Shown in pieces: positions 17,861-28,827 of a DNA stretch of 33,074 nucleotides. Origin of the DNA: Ruminococcaceae bacterium UBA2806 (GTDB taxonomy: Bacteria > Bacillota > Clostridia > Oscillospirales > Acutalibacteraceae); contig DEHG01000106.1 in assembly GCA_002351795.1 (NCBI GenBank), positions 1 to 33,074 of the forward strand. Reading direction: 5' to 3'. A program made the position numbers and the translations under genes. Each line of letters begins with the position of its first letter. The stretch's first letter is position 1. Below the pieces are notes generated by a model. The model was not told where the DNA came from and made no database searches. It worked only from the letters and a program-made list of their open reading frames with translations.

Positions 17861-19579
17861 ATGCAGGAATTTGATGCAGCAAAGGGACTTTTCCATCTGT
17901 ATTTCTCAAATGATGATGATAATTACTATAATGAAAGCTATATAAAGACAAATCAGAGCTTTGATCTGTACAACAGTCTGCTTTCCGAAAAATATGAATA
18001 TGTAATAAGCTTTTCGGGCGATGAAAGCGGCAATTGTAAAATGATAACAATGGATAATATTACCACTGAAGCGTTCAATGAAAAAAACAACAGTCTTTTC
18101 GGCGGCTTTTTCGGCGGCGGCAGAAGATCATCCGGAAGTTCTGTACCCGTAAACGAAAAAAACCGTTCAAGAAGCGGCAGAAAATCTTCAGATCTCGATC
18201 CCGGCAGCTTTGGCGAGGCTATGGATAATATTATTGCAATGATGAAAAGAAAAAATCGTGTAGCTGTCATTATGCCTATGAATATTTTTCAGACGCTTAT
18301 AAAATATCCTTCCGTTACAGATGAGCTGAAAAGAATAAGCGCAAAGAATTATCAGGATCATAACAGACACGCATTTATAATTACAGCATCATTCTATGCA
18401 AGTGAAAGCATAAGATTTTTCCGTCCGGGCGGAAATGCTCTTTTAGAGGATAATATATTTGCTGATCCTGAGCTTTTTCCGGATCTGGAGGCATATTTCC
18501 ATGATCTTTATGAAAGCTCCGCAAATTTTTATATATACGATAATCTTAAAAGCTTTTTGGGCGACAGAATAATATTCAATAATTCCCTGAGCTTTGAAAA
18601 AATACGCAGAATGATGACTCATTTTGTTTTGCAGACAGGTAAATTTGATAATATTTCTATAAACGAAATAAATTCCTTGTCTGCTGTGATCTACGCATAT
18701 TATAATTCCCCTGAATACAGGACTCATAATAATGTACCGCTTCCGGAAAATCCCAAGCGTTCTCTTGCGGCAATAGAAGAAGCTCTTTACAATAACAGGG
18801 GACTTCGTGAAAGGCTTGCGGAAATATGCGACGAATTCCGTCAGCAGCGTGATCCGTATAAATACATATGCCGTGTATATACCGACTGCATAGATGTGGA
18901 AAACGGTATCTATATGATAGGCGGCAGTGAATACAATGCCGAGCTTGGTATGCTGAGGGCAATAAAGCGTATTTATACCAATCGTTTCGGGGAAAGTCAT
19001 CCTAAGCTTGACAGAGCCATTGATATTTTTTCAAAGCCCTGTATAGACAGTGCAGTGAGTTTCAGCGCCTCAAATTTCCGCAGCAAGGTTATAGAAATGA
19101 CTCATAAAAATATAGTAAACGAGCTGACAGACTATGTTGATACAGAGCTAATAGATGCAATGCTCAGGGCGCTTGATTATTATCTTGATTATTTCCGCAA
19201 TGCTTCTCAGCTAAGGGGTGAAACGATCAGCGCAAAGGATAAATGCTTTGATTTTTATAAGGATGTAATGTCGTTTGAGGAAAGACTTTCGGGCATGAGA
19301 AAGCTGTGCAGTGAGCTTGAGCAGAGGATAGCTGCACAGGAGAGCGCAGGAGATACTTTAAGCGCAGACAATACAAGGGCATATCTGCAAAGAGTCAGTG
19401 AAAACCGTAAACAGTATGAAGCAATTGTAGATAAGGCATATCATTTGCTTTCAATACAGCTGTCTGATGAAAATGCGGTAAGCATCGTTACAAAAATAAA
19501 ATATGAAACACAGAATCTGAAAAACGCAGTAGGGACTGTGCCTGTATATACAAAAAATACTGAAAATATCATGGTCTGA
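17861..19579 (+). CDS. Orphan 572-aa protein, first gene of the ESCRT-III/Vps4-like operon; no family recognised
   Basis: ATG at 17861 after AAGGAAGGTGAGG. Alternating beta/alpha-like N-terminal region interrupted by a Gly/Ser/Arg-rich segment (LFGGFFGGGRRSSGSS...SRSGRKSS). Helical, coiled-coil-like C-terminal third. Confidence 0.6.
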   Translation: MQEFDAAKGLFHLYFSNDDDNYYNESYIKTNQSFDLYNSLLSEKYEYVISFSGDESGNCKMITMDNITTEAFNEKNNSLFGGFFGGGRRSSGSSVPVNEKNRSRSGRKSSDLDPGSFGEAMDNIIAMMKRKNRVAVIMPMNIFQTLIKYPSVTDELKRISAKNYQDHNRHAFIITASFYASESIRFFRPGGNALLEDNIFADPELFPDLEAYFHDLYESSANFYIYDNLKSFLGDRIIFNNSLSFEKIRRMMTHFVLQTGKFDNISINEINSLSAVIYAYYNSPEYRTHNNVPLPENPKRSLAAIEEALYNNRGLRERLAEICDEFRQQRDPYKYICRVYTDCIDVENGIYMIGGSEYNAELGMLRAIKRIYTNRFGESHPKLDRAIDIFSKPCIDSAVSFSASNFRSKVIEMTHKNIVNELTDYVDTELIDAMLRALDYYLDYFRNASQLRGETISAKDKCFDFYKDVMSFEERLSGMRKLCSELEQRIAAQESAGDTLSADNTRAYLQRVSENRKQYEAIVDKAYHLLSIQLSDENAVSIVTKIKYETQNLKNAVGTVPVYTKNTENIMV

Positions 19580-19600
19580 TGAGTGTACGGGGAGATTAAT

Positions 19601-27800: not shown

Positions 27801-27816
27801 AGGCGAGGTAGAATAA

Positions 27817-28827
27817 ATGTCATCAGAGATCCTTGAAAAGTATAAATCAGAGATACCCTCAATTTCCAAAGAAAAGCTGATCGGGCGAAAGAGGTATGAG
27901 ACAATGCTTGTAGGCTGTCTGCCCTTTGGGGATCAGGAGCTTTATTTCAATACCCTGAGCAGCCGCAGCGCAATGCTGCTTGCAGGCAGACAGGGATGCG
28001 GAAAACGAACTCTGGAAAGCGCTTTTATAAACGGATACGGGGAAATGTTCAGCGCAGCGCTGAGCTTTCCCTTTGAGGATATTGCCGCTGAGGGTGATGA
28101 AAAGGCAGCTGCACAGCTTACAGATTTTCTGAAAGCGCTTGAAGAATATACTGACGGCGAAGATGAAAACAGCGAGGATGCATATATTGTTACACTCGGA
28201 AACATTACATCTGTAAAGGATATGCCGAAGCTTTGCGCTGCTTTGTCTGCGGGCGTCAGAAATATTGTAAAAAACGGAAAAGGCGTTATCGTCATGACTG
28301 CTGTATATGACGGGGATGTAAGATCAATTCCTGCGGCGGTAAGAAAGCCCTTTGTTGTATGCAGGGTAGATCCGCCTTCAAGAGAGGAAAGACTTGAATT
28401 TTTTAAAAACAGTATGGAGCCTGTTTCAGGATATGTAAACGATACTGTAGGCATTGATTTTATGGCGGATTATACGGAGGGTACGACCTTTGATGATCTT
28501 GACAGTCTTATATGTGATCTTCATGTTTTTCTGAAAGCAAAATTTGTCGTTGATGTTGCCGAAACAAGCGGCTCGGACATCAGTGAGGTTGAAATGGCTG
28601 ATATCGGCATTGACAAGGTAAATCTTGAAAAGGATGATTTTATCTTCCTTGCCGACAGCTATCGTGAGGAAAAGCAGGAGGCGGCGGGATTTGATATGAG
28701 CGCCATTACGGAAGCGCTGTCAAATCTTACTGTCAATCTTTCGTCTGATAAAGAGCCTGAAAAACCGAAGGCAGTCTCCCCCTTTGCTTTGCTTGATGAT
28801 GACGATGATCCGGATGCATTATTTTAA
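27817..28827 (+). CDS. Degenerate AAA+-like paralog (probable pseudo-ATPase) with a poly-Asp C-terminal tail
   Basis: 336 aa. Deviant Walker A GRQGCGKRT (27985-28011). No acidic Walker B (YIVTLGNI). No sensor-1 Asn (VMTAVYD). AAA lid-like YTEGTTFDDLDSL. Tail FALLDDDDDPDALF (28783-28824). Confidence 0.65.
   Translation: MSSEILEKYKSEIPSISKEKLIGRKRYETMLVGCLPFGDQELYFNTLSSRSAMLLAGRQGCGKRTLESAFINGYGEMFSAALSFPFEDIAAEGDEKAAAQLTDFLKALEEYTDGEDENSEDAYIVTLGNITSVKDMPKLCAALSAGVRNIVKNGKGVIVMTAVYDGDVRSIPAAVRKPFVVCRVDPPSREERLEFFKNSMEPVSGYVNDTVGIDFMADYTEGTTFDDLDSLICDLHVFLKAKFVVDVAETSGSDISEVEMADIGIDKVNLEKDDFIFLADSYREEKQEAAGFDMSAITEALSNLTVNLSSDKEPEKPKAVSPFALLDDDDDPDALF

Follow-up and report, generated by a model that had tools for sequence, protein, structure and literature searches.

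The stretch of DNA analysed here (the window) comprises 33,074 nucleotides of contig DEHG01000106.1 from Ruminococcaceae bacterium UBA2806, a member of the Acutalibacteraceae. It carries nine open reading frames, denoted here as g1 to g9, all on the plus strand and with coordinates that agree with those in an earlier note made from the sequence alone. They are listed below together with the candidate promoter preceding them.

17739..17767, plus strand: candidate promoter, read from the sequence, with an extended -10 element (TGcTATAAT, at about 17759-17767) and a weak -35
17861..19579, plus strand: g1, 572-aa protein, first gene of the cassette
19583 or 19601..21259, plus strand: g2, predicted divergent Hsp70-type ATPase, probably starting with the ATG at 19601
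21259..23268, plus strand: g3, 669-aa coiled-coil protein, its start overlapping the g2 stop by 1 nt
23268..23753, plus strand: g4, 161-aa protein with an N-terminal zinc ribbon, overlapping the g3 stop by 1 nt
23747..24427, plus strand: g5, DUF3592 protein with two transmembrane segments, accessory
24457..25641, plus strand: g6, 394-aa all-helical protein
25659..26465, plus strand: g7, 268-aa probable ESCRT-III (Snf7-family)-like protein
26529..27800, plus strand: g8, 423-aa predicted classical AAA ATPase, with an N-domain, a linker and a single AAA module
27817..28827, plus strand: g9, 336-aa predicted degenerate AAA paralog of g8

The tight, co-directional packing described in the earlier note is borne out by the successive spacings from g1 to g9 (3, -1, -1, -7, 29, 17, 63 and 16 nt), as is the presence of a good SD for each gene, since a GGAGG-type site is found at all nine starts. 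The start of g1, the ATG at 17861, agrees with gene calls of 572 aa made on further contigs of the organism. Terminator-like sites occur in the region no more often than in shuffled sequence (7 found versus 8.9 expected) and none lies between any of the nine genes, in line with the reported lack of an internal terminator. The proposal of a single promoter stood only in part: the extended -10 element is present, while the -35 is poor and the site did not pass a consensus scan. No terminator was found 3' of g9 either, and a lipoprotein gene begins 30 nt downstream of it.

A survey of gene neighbourhoods revealed that the order g1-g2-g3-g4-g6-g7-g8-g9 is kept at all related loci whose length allows it to be seen, and that it recurs at more than 15 independent loci. 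As this order is preserved down to about 20% identity, the adjacency of the genes is not due to chance. The conserved core of the operon is made of eight genes (g1-g4 and g6-g9), to which g5 was added in this species, and the nine-gene association claimed earlier is genuine for all of them but g5. Within these eight, g6-g7-g8-g9 forms the invariant core. Indeed, the g6-g7-g8(-g9) sub-module is retained in a variant locus (L027) where the Hsp70 half has been replaced, and it is also found at two loci (L032 and L033) where contig ends hide the Hsp70 half. The hosts are rumen and gut Oscillospirales, the carriers being rumen Ruminococcus/Clostridiales and Acutalibacteraceae metagenome-assembled genomes, plus deeply divergent metagenome loci. 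When metagenomes were scanned with the N-terminal part of g8, real cassettes accounted for 2 of 80 loci, and most of the others were generic AAA genes. Flanking genes vary from locus to locus, and distant synteny is partly kept (for instance, an RCC1 gene upstream and SprT/RlmA downstream). Searches of plasmids, phages and viral contigs yielded no relatives of the cassette; the operon is chromosomal, as had been supposed.

The g8 product is, as judged from its sequence, a classical AAA ATPase in active form, and Vps4 is the protein to which it compares most closely. It matches Pfam AAA with an E-value of 6.5e-31, it is composed of a conserved N-domain of about 85 residues, a G/K/S-rich linker and one AAA module, and it presents intact Walker A (GPPGCGKT) and Walker B (FIDEID) motifs. 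Its best single-module match in the PDB is Vps4B (117 bits, versus 96.5 for VAT-D2), with 34% identity to the Vps4 core and an alignment to Vps4 that stops at residue 349. A family HMM run against comparator AAA sequences ranked them similarly (VPS4A 133 bits, VCP-D2 110, katanin 93, PAN 87, FtsH 77), and among NCBIfam models CdvC scored 116.8 bits (cut-off 650), below the CDC48 model at 143.5. Wherever the sequence of a locus continues sufficiently, the gene lies directly 3' of g7. The earlier description of g8 as a Vps4-like MIT-AAA ATPase held for the AAA module but not for the remainder: no Pfam match to MIT (PF04212) or Vps4_C was obtained, the Vps4 beta-domain is absent, comparison with the Vps4 MIT by hhalign gave P=0.08-0.56, and the N-terminal 126 residues matched nothing in the PDB. 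As for g9, its interpretation as a degenerate AAA paralog proved sound. It aligns with g8 by hhalign (1.2e-13), and its ortholog in another locus (L024) matches Pfam AAA at 5e-9. Its Walker A reads GCGKRT, GN stands in place of the DE of Walker B and no Arg-finger region is left, as would befit an inactivated paralog of g8.

The identity of the protein encoded immediately upstream of the ATPase emerged from profile-profile comparison, which indicates that g7 is probably a remote homolog of ESCRT-III (Snf7 family). When the 62-member g7 family was aligned by hhalign with a 19-sequence Snf7 template, a probability of 86% was obtained (P=5.3e-6, score 43.0), the alignment covering 156 collinear columns from the N-terminal M..LF motif through alpha5; a smaller, 7-sequence template gave a probability of 57%. 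This score equals that of the positive control, PspA/Vipp1 against Snf7 (43.0), whereas 120 block permutations of the comparison reached at most 29.2, and controls with reversed sequences and six decoy families all yielded P values of at least 0.079. All eight Snf7 and PspA comparator sequences were validated by Pfam, and the CHMP2A among them is 100% identical to a database entry. The diversity of the Snf7 template is limited, because the relatives listed in the database search were CHMP2A orthologs only. Scans of Pfam, NCBIfam and PADLOC returned nothing for g7, including Snf7, PspA_IM30, TelA, MIT and Vps4_C; neither g7 nor its 62 relatives matched Pfam Snf7 (PF03357) or PspA_IM30 (PF04012), even at E<=10 for the relatives, and a profile-sequence search of the PDB with the g7 family retrieved no ESCRT-III chain. 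Similarity of the helical proteins to PspA or TelA, which had been envisaged, is absent from the Pfam scan, and a PspA-like nature of g7 was further rejected on the basis of its hhalign comparison with the PspA/Vipp1 profile (P=0.66). The AF2 model of g7, of low confidence (pLDDT 58), displays a hairpin (H30-89/H95-162) whose tip, at residues 90-94, falls where the alignment places the alpha1-alpha2 tip of ESCRT-III. Nine of its top 50 Foldseek matches belong to the ESCRT-III/Vipp1/PspA group (among them Vipp1, Asgard ESCRT-IIIB, CHMP4B, PspA and Shrub), all of them weak, with E-values of at least 0.45. The protein begins with an MFGIFKSK motif, and its conserved tail is acidic and finishes in an amphipathic helix.

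The earlier note had considered g6 and g7 as two ESCRT-III-like paralogs, and this notion was supported in part for g7 but not for g6. Although g6 is an obligate neighbour, invariably found upstream of g7, it is not its paralog (hhalign P=0.41), and its comparison with the Snf7/PspA profiles (P=0.08-0.33; P=0.17 against PspA/Vipp1), together with a Foldseek top 50 made of generic coiled coils without any ESCRT-III protein, led to the rejection of an ESCRT-III assignment. The AF2 model of g6 (pLDDT 76) shows a bundle of helices and, after it, four long helices; no match was found in Pfam, NCBIfam or PADLOC, and a profile search of the PDB gave no informative match. A ClyA-type pore former was also considered and discarded, as AhlB, MakA and Nhe appeared at E-values of 0.13-2.4 and a hydrophobic head is lacking.

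The other half of the cassette is organized around g2, a very divergent, predicted Hsp70-type ATPase, as the earlier note had recognized. It matches Pfam HSP70 (PF00012) with an E-value of 2.6e-8 and 33 bits, above the cut-off of 20.6, and Hsp70 nucleotide-binding domains are the sole relatives of its profile in the PDB. The motifs DFGST, DYGGGTLD, EPAAAS and GGFG (phosphate-1, phosphate-2 and adenosine motifs) are invariant, and the nucleotide-binding domain is followed by a C-terminal beta-rich domain, without a helical lid. Since g2 falls well short of the equivalog cut-offs for DnaK and HscA, it should be regarded as Hsp70-like, and neither as DnaK nor as HscA. With 70-85% identity across rumen relatives, g2 is, together with g8, one of the two slowest-evolving genes of the cassette. 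The remaining members of this half are conserved in position. Every full cassette has an ortholog of g1 in the same place, with identities as low as 22-27%; the protein has no match in Pfam, NCBIfam, PADLOC or the PDB, and signals suggestive of a degenerate AAA domain were insignificant (P=0.07-0.11). The description of g3 as a coiled-coil protein agrees with its matches in Pfam, NCBIfam and PADLOC, which are to generic coiled-coil and SMC-arm models only; its sequence evolves fast (32-57% identity). That of g4 as a zinc-ribbon protein agrees with its CKFCG...CEVCG motif, and the g4 ortholog in L024 gives a weak Zn_Ribbon_1 match.

The arrangement recalls the archaeal and eukaryotic ESCRT-III plus Vps4 pairs (CdvB/CdvC; Snf7/CHMP) in several respects: g7 is small, helical and remotely similar to Snf7; its N-terminus bears a hydrophobic and basic motif, and its acidic tail closes with an amphipathic helix; and its gene immediately precedes that of a single-module classical AAA closest to Vps4, in which N-domain, flexible linker and AAA module follow one another as in Vps4. 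However, the host is bacterial (Oscillospirales), the cassette lacks Pfam matches to Snf7, MIT or Vps4_C, as well as the Vps4 beta-domain and any homolog of ESCRT-I/II or CdvA, and it includes additional obligate partners, namely g6, an inactive AAA paralog and an Hsp70-like module. Another parallel is the haloarchaeal 'Halo_adaptin' variant of ESCRT (Makarova et al. 2024, PMC10936438), in which a Vps4-like ATPase lacking an identifiable MIT follows an ESCRT-III/PspA-like gene so strongly derived that weak similarity alone reveals it; both traits recur in the cassette. Yet the Halo_adaptin ATPase carries a VAT/Cdc48-type N-domain, as opposed to the novel helical N-domain of about 85 residues in g8, and is accompanied by wH and adaptin-like proteins instead of Hsp70-like, coiled-coil and zinc-ribbon ones (PMC10936438). 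For bacteria, the PSP survey of the Ravi laboratory found that some genes of the ESCRT-III superfamily adjoin AAA+ ATPases, and its authors proposed ATP-dependent membrane remodelling (PMC11237479). A two-AAA protein with one inactive copy described there parallels the pair of active g8 and inactive g9. Those systems, however, contain a Pfam-recognisable PspA or Snf7 accompanied by ABC transporter/PBPB-OmpA or TPR-6TM partners, while g7 has no similarity to PspA, and Hsp70 is mentioned neither in the main text nor in the supplement of that survey, in contrast with the Hsp70-like g2 encoded here (PMC11237479). [quoted passage not shown] The CoCoNuT/McrBC systems, which include Hsp70-like domains (PMC11090510), are different, as the cassette encodes no McrB GTPase.

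These observations could be integrated in a model that places the cassette, with roughly even chances, among machines of the ESCRT-III/Vps4 kind, whose most likely task would be to build and take apart, at the expense of ATP, an ESCRT-III-like polymer associated with the membrane; the interpretation in the earlier note is right in part. We infer polymerisation, membrane binding, the direction in which the components act on each other and the biological role as follows. The g7 protein and its obligate helical partner g6 would assemble into a polymer along the inner side of the cytoplasmic membrane, to which the short N-termini of both, hydrophobic and rich in Lys, would anchor it; as none of the core proteins (g1-g4, g6-g9) contains a transmembrane segment, the link to the membrane is indirect. 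The single-ring AAA g8, probably in mixed rings or complexes with the inactive g9, would rely on the conserved helical domain at its N-terminus for recognition of the g7 tail, acidic and ending in an amphipathic helix, and would extract g7 subunits, leading to turnover and remodelling of the polymer as Vps4 does for ESCRT-III. Translationally coupled to g3 and g4 and located beside g1, g2 might constitute a second ATP-driven module controlling nucleation or disassembly of the polymer, comparable to chloroplast Hsp70 acting on VIPP1. The likely output would be membrane repair, scission or shaping. A more specific version, that of a genuine ESCRT-III plus Vps4-like membrane-remodelling machine vertically inherited in a clade of gut and rumen Clostridia and having recruited its own Hsp70-like module, is put forward tentatively, at somewhat less than even chances.

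The resemblance between g7 and Snf7 might instead reflect the convergence of long helical hairpins. The cassette would then be a coiled-coil and chaperone system alien to ESCRT, in which g3, g6 and g7 are lineage-specific filaments or scaffolds (cytoskeletal, related to division or sporulation, or forming a cytoplasmic assembly) on which a dedicated AAA unfoldase acts together with an Hsp70-like chaperone. This possibility, which we find doubtful, fits the lack of transmembrane segments in the core proteins and of a detectable MIT domain in g8, the fact that the link between g7 and Snf7 was seen in profile-profile comparison only, and the exclusively generic coiled-coil matches of g6 and g3 (EzrA, SMC arms, microtubule inner proteins). 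However, convergence would have to explain an alignment that runs collinearly from the N-terminal motif to alpha5, that equals the PspA-Snf7 control and that surpasses the other controls by at least 14 score units and by two to three orders of magnitude in P; moreover, the other helical proteins of the operon show no such similarity to Snf7, and the AAA partner is closest to Vps4.

A role as an anti-phage or conflict system, in which the two ATPase modules would sense infection or be triggered by it, and g6 and g7, once released or assembled, would damage membranes as effectors of abortive infection instead of serving housekeeping membrane repair, appears unlikely, even if the patchy and rare occurrence of the cassette (some 15 protein clusters in a set of 5.8 billion proteins, 64 representatives in one of 1.84 billion and 12 matches among the representative genomes of 185,579 species) would be in keeping with it. 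So would the pace of evolution, given that in the same genomes g1, g3, g4 and g9 (32-50% identity) diverge far faster than g2 and g8 (70-83%), and the composition of L027, where g6-g7-g8 is joined to a 1686-aa DUF4011/AAA_11/AAA_12/MTES_1575 helicase. Helicases of this type are common in defence islands. The g8-type AAA also matches the PADLOC models for IetA and TRIP13, but the matches in PADLOC-DB 2.0 are generic, for the AAA (IetA, TRIP13) as for the coiled coils (LmuB, JetC), and the corresponding partners (IetS, HORMA or SMC heads) are absent. Pfam, PADLOC and NCBIfam revealed no nuclease, protease, TIR, Sir2 or other toxin domain in g1-g9. The lack of relatives in phages, plasmids and viral contigs, the housekeeping nature of the flanks (QueH, HAD, YbaK-type editing domain, SprT, RlmA, RecG, TrmO) and a synteny partly kept over large distances also speak against this role. 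Fortuitous adjacency of unrelated genes, in favour of which no evidence was found, was refuted by the neighbourhood survey and deserves practically no credence, given the same order and tight spacing at more than 15 loci with differing flanks.

A review stated that a Vps4-like ATPase appears absent in bacteria (PMC7619361), and published surveys describe the ESCRT-III plus Vps4 pairing as lacking there; no description of the cassette was found in the searchable literature. If the ESCRT-III/Vps4 reading is true, a conserved bacterial cassette of Snf7-like protein and Vps4-like AAA would qualify that picture and, with its components genetically linked, would provide a compact setting in which to study the regulation of ESCRT-III-type polymers. 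Control of the Hsp70 type, so far described for chloroplast VIPP1 only, would coexist in one operon with control of the AAA type. In addition, g1, g6 and the N-domain of g8 represent protein families without known relatives that co-evolve with the proposed polymer.

Finally, g5 matches Pfam DUF3592 (PF12158) with 29.9 bits (cut-off 25.3) and has two transmembrane segments, as the initial description had it. Its proposed role as core membrane adaptor did not hold: the gene occurs only in this species and one relative (L016), and in all other cassettes it is absent, with no small open reading frame in its place. In favour of a link between the cassette and the membrane, membrane-protein genes have been inserted independently just upstream of g6, the DUF3592 gene here and one for a 4-TM protein in L027.

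The nine co-directional open reading frames proposed in the earlier note (g1 to g9) were all recovered on the plus strand of the window, followed by a further gene:

17861-19579, +, g1, orphan protein
19601-21259, +, g2, Hsp70-like ATPase
21259-23268, +, g3, coiled-coil protein
23268-23753, +, g4, zinc-ribbon protein
23747-24427, +, g5, DUF3592 protein
24457-25641, +, g6
25659-26465, +, g7, candidate Snf7-family homolog
26529-27800, +, g8, classical AAA ATPase
27817-28827, +, g9, degenerate AAA paralog
28857-29978, predicted lipoprotein (373 aa), beginning 30 nt past g9 without an intervening terminator

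The ATG at 17861 gives g1 a length of 572 aa, as gene callers have it on other contigs of the same organism, and the ATG at 19601 is the most likely start of g2, giving 552 aa. From g1 to g9, the spacings are 3, -1, -1, -7, 29, 17, 63 and 16 nt, with g2, g3 and g4 translationally coupled by 1-nt overlaps, and a GGAGG-type Shine-Dalgarno sequence precedes each of the nine starts. The reported lack of an internal terminator also held: terminator-like hairpins in 17300-30200 numbered 7 vs 8.9 in shuffled sequences, and none was intergenic. Regarding the proposed promoter, an extended -10 (TGcTATAAT) is present, but the -35 is poor and the consensus scan was not passed, so it is only a candidate. 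No terminator was found 3' of g9, and the transcript may continue into the lipoprotein gene 30 nt on. This gene, which follows g9 in the window's species and the related locus L016 alone, may thus be co-transcribed with the cassette but is outside its conserved part. No Rfam families or tRNAs were found in the window. On the other side, a 622-aa ORF lacking Pfam matches (15597-17465, minus strand) diverges from g1 across a 395-nt AT-rich intergenic region, and was seen adjoining the cassette only on contigs of the same organism. Positions 11421-13034 encode a 537-aa BspA-type leucine-rich-repeat (LRR_5) protein, flanked by minus-strand housekeeping genes (M23 peptidase, QueH, HAD hydrolase), and G+C falls to 0.29 in the first 1000 nt (1-1000) vs about 0.40-0.44 elsewhere.

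The adjacency of the cassette genes is meaningful. Very few homologs of g6 and g7 were found: a set of 5.8 billion proteins contained 14-15 clusters of them, and all sufficiently long contigs carrying them (loci L001, L002, L009, L011 and L013/14) present the order g1-g2-g3-g4-g6-g7-g8-g9. The g2 gene was found in ten MAGs of rumen 'Ruminococcus'/Clostridiales and in two of Acutalibacteraceae, in the same order as far as the contigs extend, and this order is kept in the deeply divergent L028, L029, L030, L034 and L035, in which g7 is about 20% identical and orthology was assigned by hhalign or HMM. The tetrad g6-g7-g8-g9 is complete in L033, and the weakest g7 relatives are still followed by g8 (g6-g7-g8 in L027 and g7-g8 in L032, both cut contigs). 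The flanks vary by locus: RecG/TrmO; an RCC1-repeat kinase; a YbaK-type editing domain/SprT/RlmA; or beta-lactamase/HD. The neighbourhood survey thus showed the genes of the proposed operon co-occurring in the same order in other genomes, apart from g5, which is restricted to the window's species and L016 and is therefore considered accessory. Between the same genomes, identity reaches 70-83% for g2 and g8, 47-84% for g6 and g7, and only 32-50% for g1, g3, g4 and g9. All carriers are uncultured MAGs.

The g8 product had been described as a Vps4-like ATPase with a MIT domain, and of this description the ATPase stood while no MIT domain was detected. The protein matches Pfam AAA at E=6.5e-31 and belongs with the classical AAA ATPases of the active type, Walker A and Walker B being intact. 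It is nearest to Vps4: its top single-module PDB match is Vps4B (117 bits; VAT modules, 96.5 and 86.1), and its identity to the Vps4 core is 34%. When comparator sequences were scored with the g8-family HMM, VPS4A (133 bits) and yeast Vps4 (124) were followed by VCP-D2 (110), katanin (93), spastin (87), PAN (87), FtsH (77) and TRIP13 (49). Among NCBIfam models, CDC48 scored above CdvC (143.5 and 116.8). Neither MIT nor Vps4_C was found in g8 by Pfam, by comparison of its N-terminal part with the PDB or by hhalign against the Vps4 MIT. A domain that is conserved in the family and specific to it takes up the N-terminal ~85 residues, and a variable linker rich in G, S and K comes next, so that the layout (N-domain, linker and AAA module) is that of Vps4. 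As anticipated, g9 is a degenerate paralog of g8 (hhalign, 1.2e-13), in which the Walker B DE became GN and the Arg finger is missing; its L024 ortholog matches Pfam AAA.

Of the two ESCRT-III-like paralogs claimed, only g7 was retained, and solely by profile-profile comparison. Sequence-versus-profile searches, even with E up to 10 allowed, yielded no Snf7 or PspA match for g6, g7 or any of the 62 relatives of g7, and PDB profile searches with both families gave no informative match. The AF2 model of g7 (pLDDT 58) displays a long hairpin (H30-89/H95-162); its Foldseek matches all have E>=0.45, and 9 of the best 50 are Vipp1, Asgard ESCRT-IIIB, CHMP4B, PspA and Shrub. An exhaustive HMM search produced 64 g7 relatives, 61 of which were aligned with the window's g7 (alignment A6, n=62). 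Against seven ESCRT-III sequences, all Pfam-validated (E 2e-16 to 1e-58; the CHMP2A sequence equals a database entry at 100% identity), hhalign gave A6 a Prob of 57% (P=1.1e-4), and after the addition of 12 CHMP2A orthologs a Prob of 86% (P=5.3e-6, score 43.0), over 156 collinear columns that run from the M..LF motif at the N-terminus through alpha5. The positive control, PspA/Vipp1 against the same Snf7 alignment, scored 43.0 (Prob 83%), reversed alignments gave P=0.26-0.61, the decoy families g1, g2, g3, g4, g6 and g9 gave P>=0.079, and the Snf7 alignment, block-permuted 120 times, reached a top score of 29.2 and a lowest P of 9e-4. In the low-confidence g7 model, the hairpin tip (residues 90-94) coincides with the aligned ESCRT-III alpha1-alpha2 tip. 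Common to the g7 orthologs are a hydrophobic, Lys-rich motif at the N-terminus and an acidic tail closing in an amphipathic helix, a MIM1-like arrangement; the last 20 residues of g7 are SDDEFDDYLRDWGKV, and the N-terminal peptides read MFGIFKSK (g7) and MGLLFGKKKK. Hence g7 is probably a remote Snf7-family homolog, and profile-profile comparison is the sole basis of the putative ESCRT-III link of the cassette. As for g6, its better model (pLDDT 76) found no Vipp1, ESCRT-III or PspA among the best 50 Foldseek matches; its assignment as ESCRT-III/PspA-like was rejected for lack of similarity in profile comparison, and so was its paralogy to g7 (hhalign P=0.41), with only a 10-residue N-terminal motif in common.

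The first half of the cassette agreed with its initial description. The g2 product exceeds the Pfam HSP70 threshold across the nucleotide-binding domain (NBD), its PDB matches are exclusively Hsp70 NBDs (BiP, E=8e-7), it retains the phosphate-1, phosphate-2, EPxAA and adenosine motifs, and it is distant from DnaK and HscA (NCBIfam models). The coiled-coil nature of g3, with generic matches only, and the zinc ribbon of g4 (N-terminal CxxC...CxxC) were borne out, and no relatives of known family were detectable for g1 in Pfam and PDB profile searches. On two metagenome contigs unrelated to the cassette (L039:507-4881 and L051:813-5108), a g2-like Hsp70-type gene (HMM E 1e-6 to 1e-9) adjoins a classical AAA gene of ~600 aa, which suggests that Hsp70-like/AAA pairs may recur in other systems.

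Several related loci depart from the arrangement of the window:

L009:1004-2659, RCC1-repeat beta-propeller gene upstream of g1
L013:238-1986, the same
L024:4462-6060, the same
L026:6309-7895, the same
L001:10522-11868, RCC1-repeat beta-propeller gene downstream of g9
L024:13953-14639 and 14615-15193, two tandem g7 paralogs besides g6
L034:8734-9414 and 9427-9981, the same
L027:354-9341, helicase, 263-aa orphan and 158-aa protein, then g6-g7-g8

In at least five divergent loci, the RCC1-repeat gene, absent from the window, directly adjoins the cassette and shares its strand. In some of them its product is fused to a Ser/Thr kinase domain, and the gene may represent a further facultative component or regulator. 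Whereas g7 is single-copy in the window, L024 and L034 carry two tandem paralogs. In L027, a giant SF1 helicase (1686 aa, DUF4011/AAA_11/AAA_12/MTES_1575), the orphan and the 158-aa protein (~4 TM segments) stand where g1-g4 would be. L029, whose full cassette is the most divergent, has a cardiolipin-synthase-like gene (16665-18176; PLDc_N and two PLDc_2) four genes past g9, which may reflect a membrane-lipid link or else coincidence.

In the best-supported reading, g7 and g6 would form a membrane-associated ESCRT-III-like polymer, which g8, with its inactive paralog g9, would recycle via N-domain/tail recognition, and g2-g3-g4 with g1 would constitute a second, Hsp70-type controller, for which the action of chloroplast Hsp70 on VIPP1 offers a precedent (PMC12798727). 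Membrane association of the cassette proteins is suggested by the ESCRT-III analogy, the N-terminal motifs and two independent membrane-protein insertions immediately upstream of g6 (g5 here, the 4-TM protein in L027). A rival reading would see a coiled-coil/chaperone system of non-ESCRT nature. Another, an abortive-infection or defence system, would fit the rarity of the cassette, its fast-evolving components and the helicase-linked variant; however, toxin domains are absent from all genes, as is any mobile-element link, the flanks are housekeeping and synteny is partly conserved.

A Vps4-like ATPase is, according to reviews, seemingly missing from bacteria (PMC7619361). A survey of the PSP system includes some bacterial PspA/Snf7-AAA+ associations, among them a protein with two AAA modules, one of them dead; their partners are unlike those of the cassette and Hsp70 is unmentioned (PMC11237479). 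No description of the cassette was found in the searchable literature. The closest analogue in kind is the haloarchaeal 'Halo_adaptin' variant, which combines a MIT-less Vps4-like ATPase with a barely recognisable ESCRT-III.
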